Assembly: GCF_988243305.1 (NCBI RefSeq) | Contig: NZ_OZ547136.1 | Direction: 5' to 3' (one strand) | DNA: 64,000 bases | Part shown: positions 1 through 26,972 of the stretch, in pieces | Layout: each line of letters begins with the position of its first letter | Numbering within the stretch: the stretch's first letter is position 1 | Made by a program: the position numbers and the translations under genes | Notes under the pieces: model-generated | Databases searched by the model: none | Seen by the model: only the letters and a program-made list of their open reading frames with translations | What the model was told of the DNA's origin: nothing

Positions 1-188
1 ATTACGGTAAGGACCTGTGGAGTACTTATCAGACCATCCAGGAGAATATGCTGAAAGGCGGGATTTCCGGTCGCAGTGCAAAAGGAAAACGTATCCACAC
101 CCGTGCCATTCACAGCATCGACACCGATATTAAGCTCAACCGCGCATTGTGGGTAATGGCAGAAACGCTGCTGGAGAGCCTGCGCTGA
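1..188 (+). CDS. C-terminal fragment of an island protein (possibly DUF932 family); 5' end lies outside the window
   Basis: Open frame from window edge to TGA at 186-188; stop overlaps the ATG of the next ORF; position upstream of antirestriction gene as in CP4-type islands. Family assignment is from memory, not verified. Confidence 0.45.
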   Translation, partial: YGKDLWSTYQTIQENMLKGGISGRSAKGKRIHTRAIHSIDTDIKLNRALWVMAETLLESLR

Positions 189-433
189 TGCAGCATGTCC
201 CTGAAGGCGTGATTCAGGCACCAGAATCACCCGACGCCCCGGAGGCGCTGCCGGGGTGTCGTTCCATTTCTGATGATGACCTGTGCGCCTGGTGTACCCG
301 TCTGCTTTACCGTCCCGGAGAAATCAGTCTGTGCAGACTGAGTACAGGCAATGGCATCTGGCCATCCGTCTGTGACCGGAACGGTTACGCGTACGGCTGT
401 CCGGAATTTCAGCCGAATATCATTCATCCCTGA
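188..433 (+). CDS. Small cysteine-rich hypothetical protein (81 aa), possibly DUF905/YkfF-like
   Basis: ATG at 188 overlaps upstream stop (TGATG), suggesting translational coupling; 7 Cys in 81 aa; sits between DUF932-like and antirestriction genes. Confidence 0.45.
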   Translation: MQHVPEGVIQAPESPDAPEALPGCRSISDDDLCAWCTRLLYRPGEISLCRLSTGNGIWPSVCDRNGYAYGCPEFQPNIIHP

Positions 434-526
434 TATTACCGGGTCTCACGGTCAGTGATGAACGTGATGTTGCCAGCTCCCGACCTTTACTCCCTCTCAT
501 TTATTCACATTACAAGGATTTCATAC

Positions 527-1000
527 ATGAAAACATTGTCTCAGAACACCACCTCTTCGGCCTGTGCACCGGAGACTGGCCTGCAACAACTGGTTGCCAC
601 CATAGTCCCTGATGAACAGCGCATCAGCTTCTGGCCGCAGCATTTTGGCCTCATTCCACAGTGGGTGACCCTGGAGCCCCGTGTCTTCGGCTGGATGGAC
701 CGTCTGTGCGAAAACTACTGCGGTGGTATCTGGAATCTGTACACCCTGAACAACGGCGGGGCATTTATGGCCCCTGAACCGGATGACTATGATGACGAAA
801 CATGGGTACTGTTCAATGCCATGAACGGTAACCGCGCTGAAATGAGCCCGGAAGCCGCCGGCATTGCCGCCTGTCTGATGACGTACAGTCATCACGCCTG
901 CCGTACGGAGTGTTATGCCATGACGGTTCATTATTACCGTCTGCGGGATTACGCCCTGCAGCATCCGGAATGCAGCGCCATTATGCGCATTATTGACTGA
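527..1000 (+). CDS. Antirestriction protein, KlcA/ArdB family (YfjX/YafX-like)
   Basis: Translation MKTLSQNTTSSACAPETGLQQLVATIVPDEQRISFWPQHFG... matches my recollection of the K-12 prophage antirestriction paralogs; AAGGA RBS 9 nt upstream of ATG 527. Confidence 0.85.
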   Translation: MKTLSQNTTSSACAPETGLQQLVATIVPDEQRISFWPQHFGLIPQWVTLEPRVFGWMDRLCENYCGGIWNLYTLNNGGAFMAPEPDDYDDETWVLFNAMNGNRAEMSPEAAGIAACLMTYSHHACRTECYAMTVHYYRLRDYALQHPECSAIMRIID

Positions 1001-1015
1001 AAGGGGGCAGGAACA

Positions 1016-1492
1016 ATGCAACAGCTTTCCTTTCTGCCCGGAGAGATGACGCCCGGCGAGCGCAGTCTCATTCTGCGGGCCCTGAAAACCCTGGACCGCC
1101 ATCTTCATGAACCCGGCGTGGCCTTCACCTCCACCCGTGCGGCACGGGAATGGCTGATTCTGAACATGGCGGGACTGGAGCGTGAAGAGTTCCGGGTGCT
1201 GTATCTGAATAACCAGAATCAGCTGATTGCCGGTGAAACCCTCTTCACCGGCACCATCAACCGCACGGAAGTCCATCCCCGGGAAGTGATTAAACGCGCC
1301 CTGTATCACAATGCCGCAGCCGTGGTGCTGGCACACAATCACCCGTCCGGTGAAGTCACCCCCAGTAAGGCAGACCGCCTTATCACGGAACGTCTGGTAC
1401 AGGCACTGGGCCTGGTGGATATCCGGGTGCCGGACCATCTGATAGTCGGTGGCAGCCAGGTTTTCTCCTTTGCCGAACATGGTCTGCTTTAA
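1016..1492 (+). CDS. RadC-like JAB/MPN domain protein (YeeS/YkfG/YfjY family)
   Basis: 158-aa ORF with intact JAMM-type motif HNHPSGEVTPSKAD; conserved position after antirestriction gene. Confidence 0.9.
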   Translation: MQQLSFLPGEMTPGERSLILRALKTLDRHLHEPGVAFTSTRAAREWLILNMAGLEREEFRVLYLNNQNQLIAGETLFTGTINRTEVHPREVIKRALYHNAAAVVLAHNHPSGEVTPSKADRLITERLVQALGLVDIRVPDHLIVGGSQVFSFAEHGLL

Positions 1493-1554
1493 CCCGCCAC
1501 AACCACATCACACCTGTTTTCACTTTTATCTTCTGTCTTCAGAGGTATCCCATT

Positions 1555-1776
1555 ATGAAAATCATCACCCGTGGTGAAGCCATGCGTATTCACCAACAGC
1601 ATCCTGCATCCCGTCTTTTTCCGTTCTGTACCGGCAAATACCGCTGGCACGGCAGCACTGAAACGTATACCGGTCGTGAAGTGCAGGATATTCCCGGTGT
1701 GCTGGCCGTGTTTGCTGAACGCCGTAAGGACAGTTTTGGCCCGTATGTCCGGCTGATGAGCGTCACTCTGAACTGA
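1555..1776 (+). CDS. DUF987 protein (YeeT/YkfH/YpjJ-like)
   Basis: 73-aa translation MKIITRGEAMRIHQQHP...YVRLMSVTLN is near-identical to K-12 YeeT as I recall it. Confidence 0.85.
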   Translation: MKIITRGEAMRIHQQHPASRLFPFCTGKYRWHGSTETYTGREVQDIPGVLAVFAERRKDSFGPYVRLMSVTLN

Positions 1777-1794
1777 GTCAGTAAGGGCATTCTG

Positions 1795-2439
1795 ATGAGC
1801 AGAATTATCACCACCACCGTGTATACACTGCATGAGCTATCCTCCACCGCACAGGAAAAAGCCCGCGACTGGTACCGTCAGCATCATGCTGACAGCAACT
1901 GGTATGAAAACGTGTATGAGGACTTCAGGGAGGTCTGTGGCATTTTCGGAATTGACCTCCGCCAGCGCGTTTTCCGGCTCAGCAACGGCAGGTTTATGGA
2001 AGAGCCGTGCATCTGGTTCAGCGGATTCTGCAGTCAGGGGGACGGAGCCTGTTTTGAAGGGCGCTGGCACTGGCAGCCAGCGACACCCCGGAAAATCAGG
2101 GAATATGCCCCTCAGGACCGTGAGCTTCATCGTATCGCGGATGCCCTGCAGGCGGTACAGAAGCGTAACTTCTGGCAGTTACAGGCTGAAATCAGTCACC
2201 GGGGACGTTACTGCCATCCGTACAGCATGGATATCACCGTCACCCGGAACAGTCCGACTGGTCAGGCACTGACAGCCGATGCGGAAGCCGCTGTCAGCGA
2301 AGCCCTGCGCGACCTGGCCTTCTGGCTGTACCGCCAGCTGGAAAACGAGTACGACTGGCTGACCTCAGACGCCGCTGTAGATGAGGCCATTCACATCAAT
2401 GCATATACCTTCACCGAAGCCGGTCTCCACGCCGGCTGA
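1795..2439 (+). CDS. Hypothetical protein (214 aa), unknown function, inserted between DUF987 gene and cbeA
   Basis: Uninterrupted 645-nt ORF; ATG preceded by AAGGG; Trp/Cys-rich; no family recognised. The K-12 yeeT-cbeA type modules have no gene here. Confidence 0.55.
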   Translation: MSRIITTTVYTLHELSSTAQEKARDWYRQHHADSNWYENVYEDFREVCGIFGIDLRQRVFRLSNGRFMEEPCIWFSGFCSQGDGACFEGRWHWQPATPRKIREYAPQDRELHRIADALQAVQKRNFWQLQAEISHRGRYCHPYSMDITVTRNSPTGQALTADAEAAVSEALRDLAFWLYRQLENEYDWLTSDAAVDEAIHINAYTFTEAGLHAG

Positions 2440-2488
2440 CCTGTCATCGTTAAACTATCATTCACCAATTTTTTGTGAGGATTTGATC

Positions 2489-2866
2489 GTGTCAGACACA
2501 CTCCCCGGGACAACACTTCCCGACGACAATCACGACCGCCCCTGGTGGGGGCTGCCCTGCACCGTGACGCCCTGTTTCGGGGCACGTCTGGTGCAGGAGG
2601 GTAACCGGTTGCATTACCTTGCAGACCGCACCGGTATCAGAGGCCGGTTCAGCAATGCGGATGCATACCATCTGGACCAGGCTTTTCCACTGCTGATGAA
2701 ACAACTGGAACTCATGCTCACCAGCGGTGAACTGAATCCCCGCCATCAGCATACCGTCACGCTGTATGCGAAAGGGCTGACCTGCGAAGCTGATACCCTT
2801 GGCAGTTGTGGTTACGTTTATCTGGCTGTTTATCCGACACCGGCAGCACCCGCAATCACCGTATAA
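2489..2866 (+). CDS. cbeA: Type IV TA antitoxin CbeA (YeeU) homolog
   Basis: GTG start with GTGAGGA RBS; translation VSDTLPGTTLPDDNHDRPWWGLPCTVTPCFGARLVQEGNRLHYLADR... matches K-12 CbeA. Confidence 0.9.
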   Translation: MSDTLPGTTLPDDNHDRPWWGLPCTVTPCFGARLVQEGNRLHYLADRTGIRGRFSNADAYHLDQAFPLLMKQLELMLTSGELNPRHQHTVTLYAKGLTCEADTLGSCGYVYLAVYPTPAAPAITV

Positions 2867-2912
2867 CCCCGGATATCTCCCCTTTATCACCACCTGTTAC
2901 AGAGAACTTAAG

Positions 2913-3287
2913 ATGAATACATTACCCGACACTCACGTACGGGAGGCATCGGGCTGCCCGTCTCCCGTCACCATCTGGCAGACACTGCTCACCCGACTGC
3001 TGGACCAGCACTACGGCCTCACGCTGAATGACACACCGTTCGCTGATGAACGTGTGATTGAGCAGCATATTGAGGCAGGTATTTCACTGTGTGATGCGGT
3101 GAACTTTCTCGTGGAAAAATACGCGCTGGTGCGTACCGACCAGCCGGGATTCAGCGCCTGTACCCGCTCTCAGTTAATAAACAGCATCGATATCCTCCGG
3201 GCTCGCAGGGCGACCGGCCTGATGACCCGCGACAATTACAGAACGGTAAATAACATAACCCTGGGTAAGCATCCGGAGGCGAAATGA
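2913..3287 (+). CDS. cbtA: Type IV TA toxin CbtA (YeeV) homolog, cytoskeleton-targeting
   Basis: 124-aa translation; C-terminal ~100 aa (LLDQHYGLTLNDTPFADERVIEQHIEAGISLCDAVNFLVEKYALVR...) matches K-12 CbtA; N-terminus divergent. Confidence 0.9.
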   Translation: MNTLPDTHVREASGCPSPVTIWQTLLTRLLDQHYGLTLNDTPFADERVIEQHIEAGISLCDAVNFLVEKYALVRTDQPGFSACTRSQLINSIDILRARRATGLMTRDNYRTVNNITLGKHPEAK

Positions 3288-3775
3288 TGAAACTGGCCCT
3301 GACGCTGGAAGCCGACAGCGTTAACGTACAGGCACTGAACATGGGGCGCATTGTCGTTGACGTCGATGGTATTGAGCTTGCTGAACTGATTAACGTGGTC
3401 TGCGATAACGGTCACTCCCTTCGTGTTGTTGATGAATCTGACCGAGCCTCAACAGACTGCACGCCACCATTTGCTGCCCTGACCGGCATACGCTGCAGTA
3501 CCGCGCATATCACGGCAAAAGACAACGCCTGGCTGTACTCGCTGTCGCATCAGACGAATGACACCGGCGAATCAGAATGGATTCATTTTACAGGCAGCGG
3601 ATATCTGTTACGTACCGATGCGTGGTCATACCCGGTTCTGCGGCTTAAACGCCTGGGCCTGTCAAAAACGTTCCGCCGCCTGGTTGTCACACTCATCCGA
3701 CGTTATGGCGTCAGTCTCATTCATCTGGATGCCAGCGCTGAATGCCTGCCGGGTTTACCCACTTTCGACTGGTAA
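3284..3775 (+). CDS. DUF5983 protein (YeeW-like), overlaps cbtA stop
   Basis: ATG at 3284 overlaps cbtA stop (ATGATGA); 163-aa ORF in the conserved position after cbtA. Confidence 0.75.
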   Translation: MMKLALTLEADSVNVQALNMGRIVVDVDGIELAELINVVCDNGHSLRVVDESDRASTDCTPPFAALTGIRCSTAHITAKDNAWLYSLSHQTNDTGESEWIHFTGSGYLLRTDAWSYPVLRLKRLGLSKTFRRLVVTLIRRYGVSLIHLDASAECLPGLPTFDW

Positions 3776-3777
3776 CC

Positions 3778-3984
3778 ATGAACAACATGAAATCATTAAC
3801 CACGGAAACCGCACTGGATATTCTGATTGCGTGGCTGCAGGACAATATCGACTGCGAATCGGGAATTATCTTTGACAACGATGAGGATAAAACAGATTCG
3901 GCAGCACTGTTGCCCTGTATCGAACAGGCCAGGGAGGGTATCCGTACCCTGTGCCAACTGCAGCTTCTGCACCAGAACCGATGA
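3778..3984 (+). CDS. Small acidic hypothetical protein (68 aa), possibly DUF957-like
   Basis: ATG 2 nt after the previous stop; acidic DNDEDK stretch; family assignment from memory only. Confidence 0.5.
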   Translation: MNNMKSLTTETALDILIAWLQDNIDCESGIIFDNDEDKTDSAALLPCIEQAREGIRTLCQLQLLHQNR

Positions 3985-4073
3985 GTCTTACTCATTCACT
4001 CACCAGACTTCATTCCAATGACGTCAGCCTGAACAGGGCTGGCGTTTTCGTTTATAAACCAAAAGGAAAAACG

Positions 4074-4919
4074 ATGATGTCAGATATCACAATCTCCCGC
4101 CTGGAAGTGGTCAACGGACATACGGACATTATCTGCTCCACCTCAGTCAGCCACATTCTGGCTGTGCGAAAGACTACACTGCTGCAAATCGACACACTTA
4201 TCCGGCAACTGACTGAAATATCAGCAATGACAGAAAGTATTGGCGGTAAAACCGCACTGGACTGGGCCATGAAACAGGATTTTCGCTGCGGCTGCTGGCT
4301 CATGGATAAACCTGATACAGCAATGAAAGCTATCACCCGCAATCTCGATCGCGAAATCTGGCGTGACCTGATGCAATGCTCCGGGATGCTTTCCTTAATG
4401 GATGCACAGGCCCGTGATACATGGTACCGATCACTGGAGTACGATAATTTTCCGGAAATCAGTGAAGAGAATATTCTGAGTACGTTTGAGCAGCTACACC
4501 AGAATAAGGATGAAGTGTTTGAGCGAGGAGTGATCAACCTCTTCAGAGGGTTGAGCTGGAATTACAAAACCAATTGCCCCTGTAAATTTGGCAATAAAAT
4601 TATCGTCAACAATCTGGTGAGGTGGGACCGGTGGGGATTGCATCTTATCACCGGGCAACAGGCAGATAGACTTGCCGACCTGGAAAGAATGCTGCATCTG
4701 TTCAGCGGCAAACCGATCCCCGACAACAGGGAAAACATAACTATTCATCTGGACGAACATATCCGGTCTCTTCAGGGAAAAGAATGCTATGAAGATGAGA
4801 TGTTCATTATTAAATACTTTAAGAAGGGCTCTGCGCACATCACGTTCAGGAAGCCAGAACTGGTTGACAGACTGAATGATATTATCGCAAAACACTATCC
4901 TGATATGCTGGCAGTATAG
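4074..4919 (+). CDS. Hypothetical protein (281 aa), island cargo next to serX; possibly DUF4942-like
   Basis: AAGGAAAA RBS before ATG 4074; long ORF with lower GC than core; no catalytic motif recognised. Confidence 0.6.
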   Translation: MMSDITISRLEVVNGHTDIICSTSVSHILAVRKTTLLQIDTLIRQLTEISAMTESIGGKTALDWAMKQDFRCGCWLMDKPDTAMKAITRNLDREIWRDLMQCSGMLSLMDAQARDTWYRSLEYDNFPEISEENILSTFEQLHQNKDEVFERGVINLFRGLSWNYKTNCPCKFGNKIIVNNLVRWDRWGLHLITGQQADRLADLERMLHLFSGKPIPDNRENITIHLDEHIRSLQGKECYEDEMFIIKYFKKGSAHITFRKPELVDRLNDIIAKHYPDMLAV

Positions 4920-5026
4920 CTTTGCCAGTATGCTCAAAGATCGGAAATTGTCCGATAAGATATGATCGTGGGGCATATAAACCGGTTTCAGATGGCATAC
5001 CCGGTGGCATACTGTCTGGAAGGATA

Positions 5027-5060
5027 AATAAAAAAGCGCATGTTAAACAATAACATGCGC
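5027..5060 (-). terminator. Rho-independent terminator of serX
   Basis: Perfect 10-bp inverted repeat GCGCATGTTA/TAACATGCGC with 5-nt loop, followed on the minus strand by a T-tract, just downstream of the tRNA 3' end. Confidence 0.7.
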
Positions 5061-5068
5061 TTGTAATC

Positions 5069-5156
5069 TGGCGGTGAGGGGGGGATTCGAACCCCCGATA
5101 CGTTGCCGTATACACACTTTCCAGGCGTGCTCCTTCAGCCACTCGGACACCTCACC
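5069..5156 (-). tRNA. serX: tRNA-Ser (GGA), serX
   Basis: Reverse complement reads GGTGAGGTGTCCGAGTGGCTGAAGGAGCACGCCTGGAAAGTGTGTATACGGCAACGTATCGGGGGTTCGAATCCCCCCCTCACCGCCA: 88 nt, long variable arm, CCA end. Confidence 0.95.
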
Positions 5157-5350
5157 AAATTGTTGTTCCTGTCTTGCTGGAACGGGCGCTAATTTAGGGA
5201 AATCATGACCTGAGGTCAACAAACTTTTTTAAAAAATCGCGCGTTTATTCAAACTTCAATCAATATGCAGTTTTAATAAGCGAAATCTGCTTTTTTTGCC
5301 ACCGACCACGGATTTGTTATGCTGGTGGCTTTTGTAGATCATAACGATAA

Positions 5351-6328
<978 letters not shown>

Positions 6329-6382
6329 TAAAGCATCAGGTTTCCTGCTATCCTTGGCGGGAATTGAATACAGGAGAGAGTT

Positions 6383-7120
6383 ATGTATCCCGTCGACCTT
6401 CATATGCATACCGTTGCCAGCACGCATGCATATAGCACATTGAGTGATTACATTGCCCAGGCCAAACAAAAGGGCATTAAACTTTTTGCGATCACCGATC
6501 ATGGCCCGGATATGGAAGATGCGCCGCATCACTGGCACTTCATTAACATGCGTATCTGGCCGCGAGTGGTTGATGGGGTTGGGATCCTGCGCGGCATCGA
6601 AGCTAACATTAAAAATGTTGACGGTGAAATTGACTGCAGTGGCAAAATGTTTGATTCGCTGGATCTGATTATTGCCGGTTTTCATGAGCCGGTGTTTGCG
6701 CCGCATGACAAAGCGACCAATACGCAAGCGATGATCGCCACTATCGCCAGCGGCAATGTGCATATAATAAGCCATCCCGGAAATCCGAAATATGAAATAG
6801 ATGTTAAAGCCGTTGCTGAAGCAGCTGCGAAACATCAGGTGGCGCTGGAAATCAATAATTCCTCATTTTTACACTCACGTAAGGGCAGTGAAGACAATTG
6901 TCGTGCGGTAGCCGCAGCGGTACGTGACGCTGGAGGTTGGGTGGCATTAGGCTCGGATTCTCACACCGCGTTTACCATGGGTGAATTTGAAGAGTGTCTT
7001 AAAATCCTCGACGCGGTAGATTTTCCGCCAGAGCGCATTTTGAATGTTTCTCCGCGCCGCTTACTGAACTTCCTTGAATCTCGCGGTATGGCACCGATTG
7101 CGGAATTTGCAGACCTTTAA
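6383..7120 (+). CDS. ycdX: PHP-domain phosphatase YcdX
   Basis: 245 aa; N-terminal DLHMHT metal-binding motif. Confidence 0.93.
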
Positions 7121-7143
7121 TTACTAGTAATGGAAATATATTA

Positions 7144-7698
7144 ATGAACGAGTTTTCTATCCTCTGTCGTGTGCTGGGTTCGCTCTATTACCGCCAACCA
7201 CAAGATCCTTTACTGGTGCCGCTGTTTACCCTGATTCGTGAGGGGAAACTGGCTGCGAACTGGCCACTGGAGCAGGATGAGTTGCTGACACGTTTGCAGA
7301 AAAGCTGTGATATGACGCAAGTCTCTGCCGATTACAATGCGTTGTTTATCGGCGATGAATGTGCTGTGCCGCCATATCGTAGCGCATGGGTTGAGGGCGC
7401 GACGGAAGCGGAAGTGCGCGCTTTTCTTTCCGAACGGGGGATGCCATTAGCGGATACGCCAGCCGATCACATCGGCACATTGCTGCTCGCGGCTTCCTGG
7501 CTGGAAGATCAGTCAACGGAAGATGAGAGCGAAGCACTGGAAACACTGTTCAGTGAGTATCTGTTACCCTGGTGTGGTGCGTTCCTTGGTAAAGTGGAGG
7601 CCCATGCAACTACGCCTTTCTGGCGCACCATGGCACCGCTAACCCGCGATGCCATTAGTGCAATGTGGGACGAGCTGGAAGAAGATTCTGAAGAGTAA
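7144..7698 (+). CDS. ycdY: Chaperone YcdY (TorD family)
   Basis: 184-aa ORF; K-12 gene order. Confidence 0.9.
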   Translation: MNEFSILCRVLGSLYYRQPQDPLLVPLFTLIREGKLAANWPLEQDELLTRLQKSCDMTQVSADYNALFIGDECAVPPYRSAWVEGATEAEVRAFLSERGMPLADTPADHIGTLLLAASWLEDQSTEDESEALETLFSEYLLPWCGAFLGKVEAHATTPFWRTMAPLTRDAISAMWDELEEDSEE

Positions 7699-7799
7699 AT
7701 GTGATCTACGTCACTCATAACTGCAACAGATAATTTGTTGTTGCATAAAATGTGTGCTCGATCTCATTCATGGCCGCGTTTTCTGCTATCATGCGCGGC

Positions 7800-8291
7800 A
7801 TGAACATACTTCTCTCTATTGCAATCACAACAGGCATTCTCTCCGGTATCTGGGGATGGGTGGCTGTTTCCCTGGGCTTACTAAGCTGGGCGGGCTTCCT
7901 GGGCTGTACGGCCTACTTTGCCTGCCCGCAAGGTGGGCTGAAAGGGCTGGCGATCTCCGCTGCAACCCTGCTTAGTGGCGTGGTGTGGGCGATGGTCATT
8001 ATTTACGGTAGTGCACTGGCACCACATCTGGAAATTCTCGGTTATGTCATAACCGGTATTGTCGCGTTTCTGATGTGTATTCAGGCCAAACAGCTGCTGC
8101 TTTCATTTGTTCCGGGAACGTTTATAGGCGCATGCGCGACGTTTGCCGGGCAGGGTGACTGGAAACTGGTGTTACCTTCGCTGGGGCTCGGGTTGATATT
8201 TGGTTACGCAATGAAAAACAGCGGCCTGTGGCTGGCGGCGCGTAGTACGAAGACCGCTCACCGTGAGCAGCAAATCAAAAATAAAGCGTGA
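7800..8291 (+). CDS. ycdZ: Inner membrane protein YcdZ (DUF1097)
   Basis: Hydrophobic 163-aa protein from MNILLSIAITTG; ORF extends upstream but K-12-length start chosen. Confidence 0.85.
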   Translation: MNILLSIAITTGILSGIWGWVAVSLGLLSWAGFLGCTAYFACPQGGLKGLAISAATLLSGVVWAMVIIYGSALAPHLEILGYVITGIVAFLMCIQAKQLLLSFVPGTFIGACATFAGQGDWKLVLPSLGLGLIFGYAMKNSGLWLAARSTKTAHREQQIKNKA

Positions 8292-8355
8292 GGGGCACTC
8301 ACGCTTTCGCTTAAACAGTAAAATGCCGGATTATTAATTCCGGCATTTTTATCTA

Positions 8356-9189
8356 TCAGGATTCCGGTGGAACCGACATATGGCGGTATTTCACTAGAAT
8401 GTCATTCTGCCGTTCTGCTTTATTTTGCAAATCCCAAAGACCGCGGTCGATACCATCATTAATCAGGAAAATGACGCCTGTTTCGATAGCCGACATTAGG
8501 CACAGCATAACGGGTTCGTTCGAGGTGTAACCTACTTCCCCTTCCAGCAAGCGCTGGTAGTCAATAAAGCGGAAAACCCCGGCCTGAACTTCATAGGAAA
8601 GTATCGTCTTACTAGTGTTCACCGAGGAGAGGATCTCGCCGGTACTCACATTGACGACGCGCAGGTTCACGGCAATCTGATCAAGCTGGTATTGCGTGTC
8701 GGCACCGATCCCAAAATATCTTGCCCCAACCCCGCCCGATTTGACGTTGCTTTCATAACCGATAATTGAACCTTCAACCATGATATTTGCCGCCGTTAAA
8801 GACTGCAGCGGGATTCGGTTATTAATGGCAACCGTACCGTTTTCTTGTGCCGCACGAATAATCTTGCGCTCGTTAAGCAGGTTTTGTAAGCCCTGGCGCT
8901 CCAGCGGTATAAACCAGCGAGAATCTTTCAATGCCGTGACCAGCATTGCCGTGGCGCTTTGCGGAACAGCAGTGGAGAAGTTACTTGCCGGGTAGGGTTT
9001 AAATTGCCCGGTTTCGTCCTGAATGTTGTATACCGAAACAAAGATCTTACCCGTCGGCGCTGGCAGATGGGTCAAATCTTTGTAGCTCTGAGCACGAGGC
9101 ATTAATGTCGGTCTGGCGGCTTCTTTAGGCGGGGCGGTTAAGCATCCGCTCAGTAACATGACGGCAACCAAAAGAAATAAGCGCTGCAT
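8356..9189 (-). CDS. csgG: Curli secretion channel lipoprotein CsgG
   Basis: 277 aa; lipobox LLSGC. Confidence 0.95.
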   Translation of the reverse strand: MQRLFLLVAVMLLSGCLTAPPKEAARPTLMPRAQSYKDLTHLPAPTGKIFVSVYNIQDETGQFKPYPASNFSTAVPQSATAMLVTALKDSRWFIPLERQGLQNLLNERKIIRAAQENGTVAINNRIPLQSLTAANIMVEGSIIGYESNVKSGGVGARYFGIGADTQYQLDQIAVNLRVVNVSTGEILSSVNTSKTILSYEVQAGVFRFIDYQRLLEGEVGYTSNEPVMLCLMSAIETGVIFLINDGIDRGLWDLQNKAERQNDILVKYRHMSVPPES

Positions 9190-9215
9190 GATTATTTTCC
9201 TTACGAAGCTGGGGC

Positions 9216-9632
9216 TTAAAAATCGGTTGAGTTATTTTGTAAACCCGAAACCTGGATGGTCGAGGTTTGTCCGGTTTTACGATCTGTCACGTTCAACTGC
9301 AATTGACCATCGCGGTTAGCAATATCAACAATATAATCGTTGGTCACCATGCGGCCCGGTTTACCGGTATTAATATTCGACAGTAGCCCACCTAAAATTT
9401 GTGACTGGATGGCCTGAGTAAAGTTATCTAACGCTGAGGGTGTTTCAATACCATAGTCATCGTTATAGCTCGGATCTTTATACGAGTTTTGGGCCTGGGC
9501 GCTATTTAATAAAAAAGCGCCATTATTTGGGTTACCACCAAAGTTTGGATTACGGAACTGAAAAGTCATTGTTCCAGCCCAACTTAATGGCGAAATAAGC
9601 ATGAGTAGAACTACTGCATGTTTGACACGCAT
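9216..9632 (-). CDS. csgF: Curli assembly protein CsgF
   Basis: 138-aa ORF in csgDEFG operon order. Confidence 0.95.
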
Positions 9633-9656
9633 TGCAGCCTCCGAACAATTTTTTAT

Positions 9657-10046
9657 TTAGAATTCATCATGCGCCAAATCGCCCGTACTTAATAACGCCT
9701 GATTTATCTGGCGACGATTTAGTGCTTCTTCAGTTTGAATCAGTGCAAAGACGACAGTTTTTTCGAAGTCTCTTTTCAACGGGAATAAAAAAGTCTGGAA
9801 AATAACGTCCTGATTGACCGTTATAGTGATCCAGCTTCCCCATCGTGCACTGGGCCTTTCATTAATCGTTAAGTTACCCGTATAGTCACTTTCCCATTTA
9901 TCACTAAAGGCTCGGTAAAAATCATGGCCAATAGATGAAACAGTATGGTCAGTTAACAATCCCGGGACTTCTACCTCAACGGCGTGAAGATTCCCTGCGG
10001 CGAACAGAAATTCTGCCGCCACAATCCAGCGTAAATAACGTTTCAT
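9657..10046 (-). CDS. csgE: Curli secretion specificity factor CsgE
   Basis: 129-aa ORF. Confidence 0.95.
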
Positions 10047-10050
10047 GGCT

Positions 10051-10701
<651 letters not shown>

Positions 10702-11455
10702 GATGAAACCCCGCTTTTTTTATTGATCGCACACCTGACAGCTGCCTCTAAAATAGAAGCACCAGAAGTACTGACAGATGTTGCACTGCTGTGTGTAGTA
10801 ATAAATCAGCCCTAAATGGGTAAAATATAAAACTAATGGATTACATGTGATTTCAATCTAGCCATTACAAATCTTAAATCAAGTGTTAAACATGTAACTA
10901 AATGTAACTCGTTATATTAAAATGTTAATCTTAAGGTTTTGTTAAGTTTAGAAATGATAGAAAAGTTGTACATTTGGTTTTTATTGCACAATTTTAAAAA
11001 ATCATACAAATGGTGCTAACTTACTAATAATGCATATAAAAAATATTTCGGTGTAGTCCTTTCGTCATGTAAAACGTTGTTGTTTTTTCTTCACACCTCC
11101 GTGGACAATTTTTTACTGCAAAAAGACGAGGTTTGTCACGGCTTGTGCGCAAGACATATCGCAGCAATCAGCGACGGGCAAGAAGAATGGCTGTCTGGTG
11201 ATTTTTGATTGCGGAAAACGGAGATTTAAAAGAAAACAAAATATTTTTTTGCGTAGATAACAGCGTATTTACGTGGGTTTTAATACTTTGGTATGAACAA
11301 AAAAAGAAAAATACAACGCGCGGGTGAGTTATTAAAAATATTTCCGCAGACATACTTTCCATCGTAACGCAGCGTTAACAAAATACAGGTTGCGTTAACA
11401 ACCAAGTTGAAATGATTTAATTTCTTAAATGTACGACCAGGTCCAGGGTGACAAC
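10702..11455. promoter_or_regulatory. csgD-csgB divergent intergenic control region
   Basis: ~750-bp AT-rich non-coding stretch between divergent csgD and csgB starts; known multi-factor regulatory region. Confidence 0.8.
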
Positions 11456-11911
11456 ATGAAAAACAAATTGTTATTTATGATGTTAACAATACTGGGTGCG
11501 CCTGGGATTGCAGCCGCAGCAGGTTATGATTTAGCTAATTCAGAATATAACTTCGCGGTAAATGAATTGAGTAAGTCTTCATTTAATCAGGCAGCCATAA
11601 TTGGTCAAGCTGGGACTAATAATAGTGCTCAGTTACGGCAGGGAGGCTCAAAACTTTTGGCGGTTGTTGCGCAAGAAGGTAGTAGCAATCGGGCAAAGAT
11701 TGACCAGACAGGAGATTATAACCTTGCATATATTGATCAGGCGGGCAGTGCCAACGATGCCAGTATTTCGCAAGGTGCTTATGGTAATACTGCGATGATT
11801 ATCCAGAAAGGTTCTGGTAATAAAGCAAATATTACACAGTATGGTACTCAAAAAACGGCAATTGTAGTGCAGAGACAGTCGCAAATGGCAATTCGCGTGA
11901 CACAACGTTAA
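11456..11911 (+). CDS. csgB: Minor curlin (nucleator) CsgB
   Basis: 151 aa; signal peptide then imperfect Q/N/G-rich repeats. Confidence 0.95.
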   Translation: MKNKLLFMMLTILGAPGIAAAAGYDLANSEYNFAVNELSKSSFNQAAIIGQAGTNNSAQLRQGGSKLLAVVAQEGSSNRAKIDQTGDYNLAYIDQAGSANDASISQGAYGNTAMIIQKGSGNKANITQYGTQKTAIVVQRQSQMAIRVTQR

Positions 11912-11951
11912 TTACTATTCGACTTTTAAATCAATCCGATGGGGGTTTTAC

Positions 11952-12407
11952 ATGAAACTTTTAAAAGTAGCAGCAATTGCAGCAATCGTATTCTCCGGTA
12001 GCGCTCTGGCAGGTGTTGTTCCTCAGTACGGCGGCGGCGGTAACCACGGTGGTGGCGGTAATAATAGCGGCCCAAATTCAGAGCTGAACATTTACCAGTA
12101 CGGTGGCGGTAACTCTGCTCTTGCTCTGCAAGCTGACGCCCGTAACTCTGATCTGACCATTACCCAGCACGGCGGCGGTAACGGCGCAGATGTTGGCCAA
12201 GGTTCTGATGACAGCTCAATCGATCTGACTCAGCGTGGCTTCGGTAACAGCGCTACTCTTGATCAGTGGAATGGTAAAGATTCTACTATGACTGTTAAAC
12301 AGTTCGGTGGCGGTAACGGTGCTGCTGTTGACCAGACTGCATCTAACTCCAGCGTTAACGTCACTCAGGTTGGCTTTGGTAACAACGCGACCGCTCATCA
12401 GTACTAA
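11952..12407 (+). CDS. csgA: Major curlin subunit CsgA
   Basis: 151 aa; five S-x5-Q-x-G-x-G-N-x-A repeats. Confidence 0.95.
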   Translation: MKLLKVAAIAAIVFSGSALAGVVPQYGGGGNHGGGGNNSGPNSELNIYQYGGGNSALALQADARNSDLTITQHGGGNGADVGQGSDDSSIDLTQRGFGNSATLDQWNGKDSTMTVKQFGGGNGAAVDQTASNSSVNVTQVGFGNNATAHQY

Positions 12408-12426
12408 TACATCCTCTGTATTAAAG

Positions 12427-12453
12427 AAACAGGGCGCAAGCCCTGTTTTTTTT
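12427..12453 (+). terminator. Rho-independent terminator after csgA
   Basis: Hairpin AACAGGGCGCAAGCCCTGTT followed by T-tract. Confidence 0.75.
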
Positions 12454-12465
12454 CGGGAGAAGAAT

Positions 12466-12849
<384 letters not shown>

Positions 12850-12850
12850 G

Positions 12851-13230
<380 letters not shown>

Positions 13231-13324
13231 GTTTCTGAACAACTCACCTTGCTGAGCAGAAAAATGCGATTTAACCAAAAAGCCTGCTGTACACTTAAGA
13301 AACAAGAAGGTGTAAGGAGGCGTT

Positions 13325-13858
13325 ATGAAAACGCGTATTCATGTTGTGCAGGGTGATATTACCAAACTGGCCGTTGATGTGATTGTGAATGCGGCTAATC
13401 CGTCATTAATGGGAGGCGGCGGCGTCGATGGGGCCATTCATCGCGCAGCGGGTCCGGCGCTGCTGGATGCCTGTTTAAAAGTCAGGCAACAGCAGGGCGA
13501 TTGCCCTACGGGGCATGCCGTTATTACGCTTGCAGGCGATCTTCCCGCGAAAGCCGTAGTGCACACCGTCGGGCCAGTCTGGCGTGGTGGTGAACAAAAC
13601 GAAGACCAGCTTTTGCAGGATGCCTATCTCAATAGCCTACGACTGGTGGCGGCAAACAGCTATACGTCAGTGGCTTTTCCTGCAATTAGTACTGGGGTTT
13701 ATGGTTACCCTCGTGCGGCAGCGGCTGAAATCGCAGTAAAAACCGTTTCAGAATTTATTACCCGTCACGCTTTACCCGAACAGGTATACTTTGTCTGTTA
13801 TGATGAAGAAAACACCCACCTCTACGAAAGACTCCTTACCCAACAAGGAGATGAATGA
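13325..13858 (+). CDS. ymdB: O-acetyl-ADP-ribose deacetylase (macro domain) YmdB
   Basis: 177 aa; macro-domain motifs NAAN...GGGGV. Confidence 0.93.
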
Positions 13859-15281
13859 TTTGCCCCGGCTGGCGAGCGCGGTGCTGCCACTGTGTTCGCA
13901 ACATCCCGGTCAGTGTGGCCTTTTCCCTCTGGAGAAAAGTCTGGATGCGTTTGCCGCCCGGTATCGTCTGGCCGAAATGGCAGAGCATACGCTGGATGTT
14001 CAGTATTACATCTGGCAGGACGATATGTCGGGTCGGTTACTGTTTTCCGCCCTGTTAGCCGCAGCAAAGCGTGGCGTTCGCGTCCGTTTGTTGCTGGACG
14101 ACAACAATACACCCGGACTTGACGACATTTTACGCTTGCTTGACAGTCATCCCCGCATTGAAGTCCGGCTTTTTAATCCTTTCTCGTTTCGCTTGCTACG
14201 TCCGCTTGGTTATATCACCGACTTTTCCCGTCTCAATCGCCGTATGCACAATAAAAGTTTCACTGTTGATGGCGTGGTGACGCTGGTAGGGGGGCGAAAT
14301 ATTGGTGATGCCTATTTTGGTGCAGGGGAAGAGCCACTTTTTTCGGATTTAGATGTCATGGCAATAGGACCAGTTGTAGAGGACGTTGCCGATGATTTCG
14401 CCCGCTACTGGTATTGCAAATCGGTTTCACCCCTACAGCAGGTGCTGGATGTCCCGGAAGGTGAAATGGCGGATCGCATCGAGTTACCCGCCTCCTGGCA
14501 CAACGATGCCATGACGCATCGTTATTTACGCAAAATGGAATCCAGCCCGTTTATAAATCATCTGGTTGATGGAACGTTGCCGCTTATCTGGGCGAAAACA
14601 CGTTTATTAAGTGATGATCCGGCGAAAGGGGAAGGCAAGGCAAAACGGCATTCACTGTTACCGCAGCGCCTGTTCGATATCATGGGCTCACCCAGTGAAC
14701 GCATCGATATTATCTCTTCCTATTTTGTACCGACACGCGCAGGTGTGGCGCAACTCTTACGGATGGTGAGAAAAGGGGTAAAGATTGCGATCCTAACCAA
14801 TTCTCTTGCCGCTAACGATGTTGCTGTCGTCCATGCCGGATACGCGCGCTGGCGCAAAAAATTGCTCCGCTACGGCGTGGAATTATATGAACTCAAGCCG
14901 ACGCGTGAACAAAGTAGTACGTTACACGATCGCGGCATAACCGGTAATTCCGGTGCCAGCCTGCATGCTAAAACCTTTAGCATCGATGGTAAAACGGTGT
15001 TTATCGGCTCTTTCAATTTCGATCCGCGTTCGACATTGCTCAATACTGAAATGGGGTTCGTGATAGAGAGCGAAACGCTGGCACAGTTAATTGATAAACG
15101 CTTTATTCAGAGCCAGTATGATGCGGCCTGGCAGCTCCGTCTGGACAGGTGGGGACGGATCAACTGGGTTGATCGTCATGCAAAGAAAGAAATTGTTCTC
15201 AAAAAAGAACCCGCCACCAGTTTCTGGAAGCGGGTTATGGTCAGACTGGCATCGATATTGCCCGTGGAATGGTTATTGTAA
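13851..15281 (+). CDS. clsC: Cardiolipin synthase C (phospholipase D family)
   Basis: Start overlaps ymdB stop by 8 nt; two HxK(x)4D-type motifs ([16 protein letters not shown]). Confidence 0.9.
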
Positions 15282-15288
15282 ACGCGGC

Positions 15289-16446
15289 TTAACGGGCTGG
15301 TGCTTTATCGTTCTCACGCTTAACAACCGGTTTACCAGAGAACAAAAACTTCAGTAACGGGATGCGTAAATGAATTTCATACAGAATTATCGCAATCCCT
15401 ACTACGAATATCAGGCCACAGAGAAAACCAAGCCAGTTGGAGGTGATGTGCGGTGTAATGTATGCGCCGAAAAACAGCGTTAACGGATGGTGAACCAGAT
15501 AGATAAACAGCGATGCGTTAACAAAATAAGTCACCCGCGCTGACTGGAAGTTAAGCAAACGGTGGCCAAAGGAGAAGACCACATTCACCATCCACAGACC
15601 GAGGACCATGGTGATCACCGACTCGGTTTCGTACATCCAGGCATCGCCACTGCCATAGCGCTGGTTGAGTAAGTAAGCGACAAATGCCAATGCTGCTGCG
15701 AGGGTACAGCCACGAGACGGCGTGGTAAACAAGGCTTTAAGATGAGGGAAAATGAAAGCCAGTGCGCCGAGGATAAAAAACGGCAAATAAAATAGCGTTT
15801 GCATGACAATAAAATTGAACATGCCGTTACTCAGAATGGGCGGATACACAATAAAAATCGTTCTTCTTATTACCGCATAGCTGATGCCGAGGCACAAAAA
15901 AATCACCGATAGTTTTACCATCGAGAATTTTTTATTCGTTTTATCAGAATTTTCTAAATTATTTCTGATGCGCTTGAATATCCAGACGCACAGCGTCGTC
16001 ATGACCACTAACACCAATAAAAACCACAGGTGCGATATTAATTCCCAGGCCAACGTATTATATTTGTCATACAATGACAGTCCAGGCCAACTTTCCGCTT
16101 TCCCTTTGACGTATTGCAGCATAATAAATTGCGGCAATGTCAGTAGGGGGATGGCTGTTAACATCGGGATCCCTACACGTTCGACACGTACTTTCCACCA
16201 TTTTTTCAAGGGATAGCGTAAAAAAAGCATGTAGGAAAAGTACCCGGATATAACGAAAAATACCTGCATGCGGAACGAGTGGATGAAGTCATTAAAAAGG
16301 GTCAGCCATAATGACGGTTCGGCGCTATTCACATGCCATGTATGGCTCGAATAGATTAAAGAAATATGAAAAGGGATCCCTAACAACATCAGCCAGGCGC
16401 GGATGGAGTCGAGGAAATATTCACGTTGCGCGGGTACTGGATTCAT
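15289..16446 (-). CDS. opgC: OPG succinyltransferase OpgC (acyltransferase-3 family membrane protein)
   Basis: 385-aa polytopic membrane ORF. Confidence 0.92.
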
Positions 16447-16728
16447 ATATGGTTAACTAATCTCGGATTTTTCGTCTTATCCCTGTCGGGTTATGCCTTT
16501 AGGCTTGTTGCCATAGCGACACCGACCTGACCGCGCCAGGCGCAGGCTTCAAGGTTTTTATGCATAGCATCATCGCTACCACTAACCAGAATGGAAGCGT
16601 CTGTAAGACGGTTGATAAATAAATTTGCTGGCAAACCCTACACGAAGTCGATGCTTCTGTCTTTAGGAGAAGCACGGAAAGTGAAAACGGTTGCAATCAG
16701 GTGCTTAATCCATGAGCCAGCGTGCTGA

Positions 16729-20911
<4,183 letters not shown>

Positions 20912-20919
20912 AAACGTAG

Positions 20920-21015
20920 TTGCCTGATGCGCTACGCTTATCAGGCCTACATCGCTCCTGCAATGTGTTGATTTTGCAAGATTTTGTAGGTCGGATAAGG
21001 CGTTCACGCCACATC
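20920..21015. repeat. REP/BIME palindromic elements
   Basis: GCCTGATGCGCTACGCTTATCAGGCCTAC and GTAGGTCGGATAAGGCGTTCACGCC REP-like units downstream of opgH. Confidence 0.8.
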
Positions 21016-21039
21016 TGGCAAAAACAACGAGCCAATAAA

Positions 21040-21068
21040 AATACCGGCGTTATGCCGGTATTTTTTTA
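21040..21068 (+). terminator. Rho-independent terminator
   Basis: Hairpin TACCGGCGTTATGCCGGTA followed by T7. Confidence 0.7.
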
Positions 21069-21083
21069 CGGAAGAGGTATCAA

Positions 21084-21311
21084 ATGCGTTTAATTGTGGT
21101 GAGCATCATGGTGACCTTGCTGAGTGGCTGTGGCAGCATCATTAGCCGCACTATACCGGGGCAGGGGCATGGCAACCAATATTATCCCGGTGTGCAATGG
21201 GATGTGCGTGACTCCGCCTGGCGTTATGTCACAATCCTTGATCTGCCATTCTCCCTGGTTTTTGATACTTTACTGCTGCCGATCGACATTCATCATGGCC
21301 CGTATGAGTAA
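21084..21311 (+). CDS. yceK: Lipoprotein YceK
   Basis: 75 aa; lipobox LLSGC. Confidence 0.88.
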   Translation: MRLIVVSIMVTLLSGCGSIISRTIPGQGHGNQYYPGVQWDVRDSAWRYVTILDLPFSLVFDTLLLPIDIHHGPYE

Positions 21312-21686
21312 TTAACGTTCATCCCACTCATCAGCTGCTGCGCGTCCTTCCTCGGTATCCAGCGGTGGCTCAAGCTGAAATTCCCCCTCGCCCCATTCAT
21401 GTAATGTATTCTCTTCCTGCCACTCCTGGCGGATCTCTATCTCATCATAGTCGCCATCAAAGACACTTTGCGCGGCTTCACCGCTAAGCATAGGTAAACA
21501 TTCACCTTCTTCCCCTTCGTCGGCAAAAAACTCAACTTGCCACATGATGTCGCCGTCCTGCAAAACGTATTTTTGGGCATTGAACTGTTGCACATTCGCA
21601 TCTTCGGCGTCGATGCCGGGGTTGTCTGCAAGAAATTCTTCGCGTGCAGCGTCAATGGCTTCTTCAAGCGTTGCGTACATGGTCAT
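21312..21686 (-). CDS. msyB: Acidic protein MsyB
   Basis: 124-aa highly acidic ORF (MTMYATLEEAIDAAREEF...). Confidence 0.9.
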   Translation of the reverse strand: MTMYATLEEAIDAAREEFLADNPGIDAEDANVQQFNAQKYVLQDGDIMWQVEFFADEGEEGECLPMLSGEAAQSVFDGDYDEIEIRQEWQEENTLHEWGEGEFQLEPPLDTEEGRAAADEWDER

Positions 21687-21768
21687 CACGATTCTCCCTT
21701 TGAGTTGATGAGGTTTCAGGGAAAAGGATAGCTGATTCTCCGCTTTTACAAGTATGAAAGGCGAAAAA

Positions 21769-22995
21769 TCAGTTCGATACCTGGGGTATTCGACGACGAC
21801 GTAGACTGTTCCATGAATAGACTGCGTTGAATAACACTACGCCAGCGGTGACGAGAAATACCGCTCTGAAACCGTAGTTCGCTGAAATCGCGGCTCCCAT
21901 CAATGGTCCGGTAACGTTTCCAATATCACGAAACGACTGGTTATAGCTGAAGATACGCCCGGCGATTTGGTTGCTCGAGTTGTAAACCAACAGTGTCTGT
22001 ACGGCGGGGAGTAGTGCACCATCGGCGGCACCGAGCAAAAAACGTAAAATCCCAAGTTGTAATGGCGTCTGAACGTAAGACATTGGGATCAACAGCAGTA
22101 CAGAAAAGATCAGCGCCGTAATCAGGATCTTTTCGGGTCCGATTCGATCGCCAAGTTTGCCGAGTCGTGGTGCACTTAGCAGAGCCGCCACGCCTGGCAC
22201 CGAGGCGATCATGCCACTGATAAAGGCGACGTTACTGACGTTACCCGCCAGTTCGCGGACATACAGCGTCAGAATGGGGGCAATTGAGCCCGTTGCCACC
22301 TGGATGATTAACGTAGTGACAAACAGGCTGAGTACCAGTTTCGGGTTTTTAAGTGATGTCACCACTTCACGCATGTGCAGCATCTCTTTTTTGCTGACCG
22401 GCTGGAATTTTTCTCTGATGCAAAACAGGGTGACGAAAAAGCAGAGTATGAGCACACTGGCGGTAATAAAGAATACCGGACGTAAGCCGTAGCTATCGGC
22501 GAGCAGGCCGCCAGCCATTGGGCCGAGCAACGCACCACTAACGCCGCCTGTGGAGAGCGTACCCAGCGCCCAGCCGCTTTTATTACGCGGTACTTGTGTG
22601 GCGATAAGAGCATTAGCGTTGGGGACAAATCCGCCAAGTAACCCAAGAAGCGCCCGTAGGATCAAAAACTGCCAGATATTTTGTGCCAGCCCCATCAACA
22701 CCATCACGATGCCCATGCCGAGGGCAGAGCGTAATAGCATGAGTTTGCGGCCTTTACGGTCGGCGAGTCCACCCCAAAACGGTGAGGCGATGGCAGAAAA
22801 TAAAAATGTAATGCTGAAGACAATACCGGACCACATATTCAAGGCGGAGTGGCCCGTAACGCCAAGCTGCTCAACGTAGAGGGGTAAGAAGGGCATTACC
22901 AGGCTGAAGGCGGCACCCGTAAGAAAACAGCCTAGCCAGGCGACGATCAGGTTTCGTTTCCAGTTTATAGGGGTGTCATTTTCACAGGGTGACAT
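21769..22995 (-). CDS. mdtG: MFS multidrug efflux transporter MdtG
   Basis: 408-aa 12-TM MFS ORF. Confidence 0.93.
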
Positions 22996-23166
22996 AGCAA
23001 TCCGCTGTTGGTGCGCCAGGCGCGGTGAACATAAGAAGAAAAGATAAGCACACTAATTATGCGCCCGACTTCCAGGGGGCGCAATCCAGAGAGCTTTTAT
23101 CGCTAAATCAGGGGGATTTGCTGTGGTAATGCCGGATACCCTTCTGAAGCATCCGGCATGGGAGAT

Positions 23167-24087
23167 TTAATAGCGTGAAGGAACGCCTTCCGGGCGTGTT
23201 TTAAAGCGACGGTGTAACCACATATACTGCTCTGGTGCCATCATGATGCATTTTTCGACCACTTTGTTCATCCACGCGGCGGTGGTTTCGGCATCATCCA
23301 GCGGCGGAGAACACTCTGGCGGCAGCATAATCAACTGATACCCTTTGCCATCTGGCTTACGGCGTGGAACGAAGGGCACCAGACATGCGCCGGACATCCG
23401 TGCCAGCATCCAGGTTCCGGTCGTGGTCGCAGCCTGCTCAACGGCAAACAACGGGACGAAAACGCTTGAGCGCGGGCCGTAATCATGATCCGGTGCGTAC
23501 CAGACCACTTCGCCTTTTTTCAGGGCTTTAATCATGCCTTTTAAATCTTTGCGGTCGAGCATCGATTTATTTGAGCGCAAACGGCCCCAGGTTTGTAGCC
23601 AGTCAATCAGTGGATTATCGTTCGGGCGGTAAACGCCAATCCCCGGTTCCTGCATACCAAACTGCCGCGCACCAAGCTCCAGTGTCAGAAAATGGATGCC
23701 AACTAACAGGATGCCGCGTTTTTGCGCCTGCACGTCACGAATGTGTTCCATGCCGATCACTTCCGTCCAGCGGGCGATTCTGCGGTCCGGCCAGAACCAC
23801 GCCATGCCAGTTTCCATCAGTCCCATGCCAACGGATTCGAAATTCTTCACCACCATTTTACGGCGTTCTTGTTCGCTCATTTCCGGGAAGCACAGTTCCA
23901 GGTTGCGATGCACAATTTTTGCGCGTCGTTTCATAAAACGTAACGCCAGTTTTCCTAATCCACAACCGAGGCGGTAGATAACCGGGTAGGGCAATTGCAC
24001 GACTAACCAAAGTACGCCAATACCCAACCAGGTTAACCAATAACGCGGATGAAGCAGTGCGGTGGAGAACTTGGGTAGATTCGTCAT
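23167..24087 (-). CDS. lpxL: Lipid A lauroyl acyltransferase LpxL (HtrB)
   Basis: 306 aa from [17 protein letters not shown]. Confidence 0.93.
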
Positions 24088-24311
24088 ATCAATCCTGTTT
24101 TTCAACCTATACGGGCAATTGTATGTATTGTCGCATTTTTTCGCCCGCAACCAAAATTTGTGGCTGAAGACTGGGCGAAATTGCCGCGCTTGTAAATAAC
24201 AAATAATTTTTAATGCGCAAATGTAGCGTAAAATGTGTGGATGTTAATTATCGATAATTGCTATATCATGCCGCGGATTTTTACTTTCCCATCTCGCAGG
24301 AACCGTACACC

Positions 24312-25364: not shown

Positions 25365-25405
25365 ATATCATTGCCGGATGCGTGTCATCCGGCAACATTT
25401 CACTC

Positions 25406-25981: not shown

Positions 25982-25984
25982 TTT

Positions 25985-26551: not shown

Positions 26552-26811
26552 AAGTGCATCCAAAACGAATTTGCGAGAGAAAGAAAATGGCGTGTCGGAG
26601 AATGAAATGCAACACAAAAATAACAAATTGAATGATATTTATTTTTATTTCAATAATTTTGAATTAATAATGAAAGAATCTTCATAAGTTTAGTGGATTC
26701 AGCATTTGGAAGGTCTGGTGAGTGCTGTAGAGGCAGGAAGAATCTCATTCAATTTTTCACGCTAAATGAAAGGGAGATTAAATATTTGTCAGTTTATGTC
26801 AGTACAGAAAA

Positions 26812-26952: not shown

Positions 26953-26972
26953 TCTGGAGGCCGTAATGATGA

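Follow-up and report, generated by a model that had tools for sequence, protein, structure and literature searches.

The 64,000-nucleotide stretch of contig NZ_OZ547136.1 (RefSeq assembly GCF_988243305.1) analysed here, hereafter the window, carries at its island end a gene (1016..1492, plus strand) for a RadC-like protein with a JAB domain, hereafter the JAB gene. Our results revealed that this gene is intact and under strong purifying selection, and that the JAMM metalloprotease motif of its product is complete and, as judged from profile alignment, is placed where a characterised JAMM enzyme has its catalytic residues. On balance, and with somewhat more belief than doubt, we take the product for a zinc-dependent JAMM hydrolase whose most likely activity is that of a peptidase on a protein of the host or recipient cell, in an operon for establishment or host manipulation.

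The JAMM motif and the catalytic positions

The open reading frame (ORF) comprises 477 nt including its TAA stop codon and encodes 158 amino acids (aa); its ATG start lies 15 nt past the stop codon of an antirestriction gene, with a purine-rich AAAGGGGGCAGGAACA just upstream. A sequence-only reading of this DNA had claimed a RadC-like protein with a complete H-x-H-x7-S-x2-D signature. Both points are borne out, as the protein matches the RadC-like JAB family PF04002 with 151.3 bits against a cut-off of 22.1 (E 1.4e-44; aa 38-157 on profile positions 2-121 of 121) and HNHPSGEVTPSKAD, residues 107-120, fits the pattern exactly. The four residues of the signature are all there as claimed, while the fifth JAMM residue, the upstream Glu, had been omitted in that reading and is also present as E57. 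The complete E-x(n)-H-x-H-x7-S-x2-D in the protein is made up of E57, H107, H109, S117 and D120, with an E-to-H spacing of 50 residues. Taken alone the bare H-x-H-x7-S-x2-D pattern is not significant: nothing but HNHPSGEVTPSKAD fits it when the window is translated in six frames, and mononucleotide-shuffled windows give 0.34 matches on average, at least one being found in 29.5% of the shuffles. The motif owes its weight to its placement inside a strong match to the RadC-like JAB domain, not to the pattern itself.

When the RadC profile was searched against the PDB, only the JAB domain of the chromosomal RadC of Chlorobium tepidum (2QLC, a structural-genomics entry) was reached, and no classic JAMM enzyme was found even at E values up to 10; the catalytic positions were therefore mapped by profile-profile comparison. 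Herein one alignment (A1) holds 74 sequences, namely the query, its four K-12 relatives and representatives of 41-81% identity, which were taken from an exhaustive HMMER search (E up to 1e-3; 40,794 cluster representatives in all), and the other (A2) holds the 23-sequence family of AfJAMM. The reference sequences of AfJAMM and Rpn11 were verified as 100% identical to the PDB chains 1OI0/1R5X and 4OCL, respectively. By hhalign the two alignments match with a probability of 92-93% and an E value of about 3e-7 to 7e-7, and H107, H109, S117 and D120 correspond to H67, H69, S77 and D80 of AfJAMM (probability 92%, E 6.6e-7). Moreover, when the alignment was run in extended or global mode (probability 88-93%), E57-x-F59, both of them invariant, fell on the invariant E22-F23 of AfJAMM, and H141 is aligned with H91, which is invariant in the AfJAMM family. 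For the AfJAMM motif EXnHS/THX7SXXD, the original description states that the His residues and the Asp bind zinc and that the Glu is the catalytic partner (PMC300881). Rpn11 falls in the same register (H109/H111/S119/D122, with E48 opposite E57), with insignificant scores (single-sequence hhalign, E 0.16). A single-sequence comparison with AfJAMM gave only a partial alignment (E 2.5e-4, 31 columns) in which the Glu was misplaced in low-confidence columns, and this was mended by building the AfJAMM-family profile. As far as these alignments can tell, the JAMM motif is thus complete and stands where the characterised JAMM enzyme has its catalytic residues; the check whether the motif residues might lie elsewhere agrees with the AfJAMM register and gave nothing to contradict it.

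The predicted structure points the same way. The AlphaFold2 model of the protein (predicted local distance difference test score, pLDDT, 86.9) has the JAB/MPN fold, with E57 directly before the core strand 58-64, H107 and H109 at the end of the strand 102-108, and S117 and D120 at the start of the helix 118-132. In the model this placement matches what is expected of JAMM topology, and the same residue arrangement has been described for RadC-like DinG domains in an independent review. The close structural neighbours of the protein are all peptidases, with no nuclease among them.

As to its family, the protein scores 149.5 bits with the NCBIfam profile TIGR00608 (cut-off 133.85) and is a RadC-like JAB protein, yet it is not an equivalog of the chromosomal RadC/YicR, since with PRK00024 it reaches 159.6 bits, under the cut-off of 180, and covers profile positions 88-211 of 212 only. 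YicR (b3638, 41% identity) has the same JAB domain, with the HNHPSG...PS.AD, HPRE and DH motifs in common, but in the pairwise alignment about 65 N-terminal residues of YicR are missing from the window protein; this N-terminal region of RadC is a helix-hairpin-helix (HhH) domain according to Iyer et al. (PMC3239186). Going by the model, the window protein is a stand-alone RadC-type JAB/MPN+ domain with a short helical N-terminal extension and without the HhH half. Its match to the Pfam family Prok-JAB is sub-threshold, with 20.5 bits against a cut-off of 25.

The gene is intact and under strong purifying selection. By the Nei-Gojobori method, the ratio of nonsynonymous to synonymous substitution rates (dN/dS) is 0.06 against yeeS, 0.10 against ykfG and 0.12 against lfgB, with dS being 0.1, 1.2 and 1.7, respectively. 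In A1, whose mean column identity is 25%, 11 columns are invariant over the 74 sequences (E57, F59, G79, R89, H107, H109, P110, S117, D120, D140 and H141), among which the RadC-family residues R89 and D140 lie outside the five JAMM motif residues. The whole E...HxH...S..D is kept in 93 of 96 representatives (at least 140 aa, about 41-60% identity), the HxH-x7-S-x2-D in 116 of the 120 closest protein clusters, and the full-length form of 158 aa heads clusters of 2332, 6367 and 2676 members. The sequence-only reading had spoken of an active enzyme rather than a remnant. Its second half stands, as these dN/dS values, together with the motif kept in distant homologues, are not those of a decayed remnant, while the activity is something we would infer from the residues.

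Relatives, island module and plasmid homologues

At the DNA level the gene is 100% identical to that of the 'JAB domain-containing protein' WP_001186727.1 of the uropathogenic E. coli NU14, and of 5426 complete E. coli genomes, 4798 have a match of at least 90% identity (median copy number 3, maximum 13). The same junction between island and core is found in 1130 complete genomes, and a 100% match over the 9-kb junction is found in none of the complete genomes in the collection. Compared with NU14 and UTI89, the island part of the window (1..5160) shows 1-2 base differences, whereas the core part (5160..64000) is about 1-2% different; the window hence comes from an E. coli strain related to NU14. 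The island end is more conserved than the chromosome around it, a pattern that would fit recent horizontal spread or gene conversion between island copies.

The position on an island, which had also been claimed, agrees with what follows the gene: 3.6 kb downstream lies a tRNA-Ser(GGA) gene, serX, and then the core genes ghrA, ycdX, ycdY and ycdZ and the csg, mdo, flg, rne and fab loci. The JAB gene is part of the final accessory module of the genomic island that ends at serX. The genes of this module are co-oriented on the plus strand and tightly spaced over 1..4919 (Table 1), and the antirestriction, RadC-JAB, DUF987, CbeA-type and CbtA-type genes, all on one strand within 527..3287 and near the tRNA-linked island end, have the membership of a CP4-type module.

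Table 1. Features of the island end, with positions counted in the window
Feature	Position	Strand	Evidence
DUF932 gene, 3' end	1..188	+	Pfam, annotation
Small hypothetical gene	188..433	+	Pfam scan, annotation
ArdB/KlcA-type antirestriction gene (YfjX/LfgA family)	527..1000	+	PF03230 E 4.5e-37, PHROG anti-restriction, annotation
RadC-like JAB/MPN+ gene (YeeS orthologue)	1016..1492	+	ORF, PF04002, WP_001186727.1 annotation, YeeS identity
E57 codon, upstream JAMM Glu, predicted general base	1184..1186	+	Invariant column, alignment with AfJAMM E22
HNHPSGEVTPSKAD: H107, H109, D120 predicted Zn ligands, S117 predicted oxyanion Ser	1334..1375	+	Pattern match, AfJAMM alignment, invariant
D140-H141, RadC-family invariant pair	1433..1438	+	Invariant columns; H141 opposite AfJAMM-family invariant H91
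DUF987 (YeeT family), 73 aa	1555..1776	+	PF06174 E 3.7e-39
214-aa protein in operon-like array	1795..2439	+	ORF between DUF987 and cbeA
CbeA antitoxin of type IV toxin-antitoxin pair	2489..2866	+	Pfam (PF06154/PF06755 for the pair), annotation
CbtA toxin of type IV toxin-antitoxin pair	2913..3287	+	Pfam (PF06154/PF06755 for the pair), annotation
DUF5983	3284..3775	+	Pfam, annotation
DUF957	3787..3984	+	Pfam, annotation
DUF4942, island-module end	4077..4919	+	Pfam, annotation
tRNA-Ser(GGA) (serX), island boundary	5069..5156	-	ARAGORN, Rfam tRNA

In fact, three island modules of K-12 (CP4-44, CP4-6 and CP4-57) hold the same series of an antirestriction gene (or a yeeR fusion), a JAB gene, DUF987, and CbeA-type and CbtA-type genes, where the DUF987 neighbour is common to all three, and NU14 has this order of antirestriction, JAB, DUF987 and toxin-antitoxin genes as well. 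With amino-acid identities of 99% to YeeS, 82% to YkfG and 71% to YfjY (LfgB), the window gene can be assigned to the YeeS/YkfG/YfjY family as its member in the serX island. YeeS (b2002), in the cryptic prophage CP4-44, reaches its 99% over the common 148 aa and has the same neighbours as the window gene, Ag43 upstream, and YeeT/DUF987 followed by CbeA/CbtA downstream; it differs in being annotated 10 aa shorter and in having the yeeR fusion gene next to it, where the window has a distinct antirestriction gene, and its module is without the 214-aa gene that the window module has between DUF987 and cbeA. YfjY (b2644), in CP4-57, has an identical motif and an identical order of antirestriction, JAB, DUF987 and toxin-antitoxin (TA) genes, though as a paralogue it is distinct from the window gene. 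Ahead of the Ag43 gene, and upstream of the window itself, Rfam places a small RNA (sRNA) of the IS102/IsrC type (locus coordinates 6920-7156), a known feature that is arranged as in isrC-flu of K-12.

A yfjXY-ypjJ-yfjZF operon has been reported for CP4-57 (PMC10846083). Since our promoter and terminator scan of the module gave no promoters above the shuffle expectation, the operon structure in the window is argued from the gene spacing and from this CP4-57 operon. The radC RNA motif RF01754 was not found upstream of the JAB gene, either at the gathering threshold or at E up to 1. Two further observations concern the same DNA: an antisense ORF of 319 aa (521..1480, minus strand), a mechanical ORF running across the antirestriction and JAB genes, has neither annotation nor homology evidence and is in all likelihood no real gene; and in the core part, Rfam finds the sRNA ES056, a known feature, in the csgD upstream region (about 10757..10848, minus strand).

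Among the neighbours, the predicted fold of DUF987 has no solved relative and is not a beta-grasp. The 214-aa protein, whose gene is missing from all three K-12 modules, has no Pfam, NCBIfam or PADLOC match and falls only into a PHROG family of unknown function. Over its full length, it is 58% identical to a protein of a Rhodobacterales plasmid annotated as 'antitoxin of toxin-antitoxin stability system', which lies at 7739-8380 of the plasmid locus, with two radC genes, DUF932 and ssb close by on its upstream side. With this plasmid the cross-class conservation of the 214-aa protein (58%) is higher than that of the JAB protein (42.6%). For the DUF4942 protein, one secondary match in PHROG (E 8e-19) is to a family that carries the label DNA methyltransferase.

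Homologues of the JAB gene were found on 2337 plasmids, of which 1649 are conjugative, and in the sampled plasmids their neighbours are ssb, antirestriction, ParB and DUF932 genes. For example on an IncL pOXA-48-like plasmid (NZ_CP068908.1), a JAB protein that is 61% identical to the window protein over the JAB domain stands in a co-oriented array of DUF3085, JAB, DUF4942, Hha, antirestriction and ssb genes, and this array lies on the side of oriT-mobA-traI opposite the relaxase, which is how a leading region is operationally defined. The plasmid JAB protein differs from that of the window in its N-terminus, in its immediate neighbours (DUF3085 and an HTH gene) and in having Ile where the HPRE motif has E90. 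DUF4942 lies about 3.3 kb downstream of the JAB gene there (plasmid locus coordinates 10660-11520), and being common to the island module and the IncL plasmid, it may be a recurrent partner of the JAB module. DUF3085, which stands directly before the JAB gene on this plasmid (6433-7366 in the same coordinates), is missing from the window module; it has been described as the factor most enriched in broad-host-range plasmids, with a predicted RadC complex (2026, PMC12826799). The Rhodobacterales plasmid brings together SSB, DUF932, two radC genes, the homologue of the 214-aa protein and a TA pair; IncHI2 and Hydrogenophaga plasmids have ParB-type neighbours of the JAB gene; and the metagenomic contigs with distant homologues are mostly too short for gene context.

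Weighing the candidate functions

In the reading that we favour, H107, H109 and D120 would hold one Zn2+, E57 would activate the zinc-bound water, and S117 would stabilise the tetrahedral intermediate, by which an amide bond would be hydrolysed, the likeliest being a peptide or isopeptide bond within a protein. We infer an amide bond because, to our knowledge, every biochemically characterised JAMM enzyme hydrolyses one, and because of the action on MqsA reported for LfgB. The role would be directed to the host or recipient, the gene being expressed together with the antirestriction gene as the element establishes itself, and in resident cryptic islands the same role may have been co-opted into stress and TA regulation. 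What leads to a peptidase is the full set of JAMM peptide-hydrolase residues, the peptidases among the structural neighbours, the lack of a partner of the ubiquitin-like (Ubl) type and the company of establishment and anti-defence genes. Compared with the JAMM/MPN+ isopeptidases (AfJAMM, PfJAMM1, Rpn11, CSN5, AMSH/Sst2, BRCC36, Cap3 and BilC), to which it is 11-20% identical, the window protein appears to have their fold and zinc site, but not their Ubl or conjugation genes nearby.

The closest experimental support comes from YfjY, labelled 'CP4-57 prophage protease' in the RefSeq annotation of K-12 and renamed LfgB by Fernandez-Garcia et al., who reported that it degrades the antitoxin MqsA and casein, and that a lfgB deletion has a phenotype under H2O2, acid and heat, which was complemented (PMC10846083). 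LfgB is the sole family member with a reported activity and phenotype, and regulation by MqsA, like the use of MqsA as a substrate, is reported for LfgB only. The statement of the sequence-only reading that the role of RadC-like proteins is unresolved is hence largely true, but slightly dated.

Several points weigh against a peptidase. The assays of LfgB used a poorly soluble protein and overnight incubation, contaminating proteases were not strictly excluded by the authors, and the passages on the assays contain no catalytic-residue mutant (PMC10846083). In our own data, the placement of E57 on E22 of AfJAMM lies in low-confidence columns, and the Foldseek matches to JAMM peptidases are weak (template modelling score 0.35-0.44), on a par with those to cytidine deaminases. 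Furthermore Iyer et al. drew a nucleic-acid role from fusions of the domain to HhH, ArdC-N, DnaG primase and DinG helicases; in the DinG fusions the JAB domain replaces a 3'-5' exonuclease, and the RadC-type JAB has been argued to be without a groove for the ubiquitin tail (PMC3239186, PMC5512222). Multicopy yfjY is also a mutator (Yang et al. 2004, known to us through a citing paper), which fits an activity on DNA as well as it fits proteolysis.

These last points are also the ground of the main rival, to which we give a real though clearly minor chance, namely that nucleic acid is what the intact zinc site works on, the protein being a nuclease or a DNA- or nucleotide-processing hydrolase that would act on incoming or transferred single-stranded DNA during establishment. 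The JAB domain has a deaminase-like fold, other members of which act on nucleotides, and the weak Foldseek matches include both cytidine and double-stranded DNA deaminases; the neighbours in other elements are SSB, ParB, DUF932 and Toprim/DUF927 primase; and chromosomal radC belongs to competence regulons. However, no JAB domain has ever been shown to be a nuclease, the Ser and Glu that are conserved here form the JAMM set for peptide hydrolysis, and the island form is just the one that is without the HhH half for DNA binding.

The other rivals fare worse. An anti-defence isopeptidase of the Cap3/BilC type, which would strip Ubl or CD-NTase conjugates of the CBASS, Bil or Bub systems of the host, is unlikely: no E1, E2, Ubl or CD-NTase gene occurs in the module, which is not of the Ubl-coupled JAB peptidase kind, the adjacent DUF987 is no beta-grasp, PADLOC gave no match for six island proteins, the sequence similarity is to RadC with Prok-JAB staying under its threshold, and the missing Ub-tail groove argued for RadC-type JABs (PMC5512222) stands in the way here as well. 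Even less probable is a non-catalytic or decaying leftover of a cryptic prophage, that is a scaffold or pseudo-enzyme whose motif was kept by chance or through recent origin. Such a leftover would suit the degraded CP4-like islands with their pseudogenes and the many singleton truncated or fused variants in the databases, and is disfavoured by the low dN/dS at dS up to 1.7, by the five catalytic residues staying invariant out to 41% identity and by the dominance of the 158-aa form in large clusters. That the protein serves in DNA repair, as the name RadC, the annotation 'DNA repair protein RadC' and the PHROG label 'DNA repair protein' say, is scarcely credible given its score under the equivalog cut-off, its missing N-terminal half and a repair role of RadC that is itself called uncertain and disputed in passages citing Attaiech et al. 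2008, 'RadC, a misleading name?' (PMC3239186, PMC5512222).

Bearing on the RadC-type JAB family

The JAB gene was correctly seen, and it is an ordinary and already known gene that is found in the annotation of thousands of genomes; that RadC has a JAMM motif was pointed out as early as 2003-2004. Returning to the peptidase reading, it can be extended, as a rather doubtful conjecture, to RadC-JAB proteins without an HhH half in general, on islands as on conjugative plasmids, which would be zinc peptidases for establishment and anti-defence, co-expressed with ArdB/KlcA antirestriction in arrays of the leading-region type, and destroying a protein of the recipient. Upon entry or activation of the element, such a target could be part of a defence system, an antitoxin, or a regulator of the MqsA kind. 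If this were true, the window gene would be one of several redundant copies. The copy number of up to 13 per genome is in any case a warning that paralogues would mask the knockout of a single gene.

More generally, few bacterial proteins of unsettled substrate are as widespread as the RadC-type JAB domains, and the question of peptidase or nuclease is wider than the window gene. The residue map of E57, H107, H109, S117 and D120 gives the exact mutants by which the published protease claim for LfgB can be tested.
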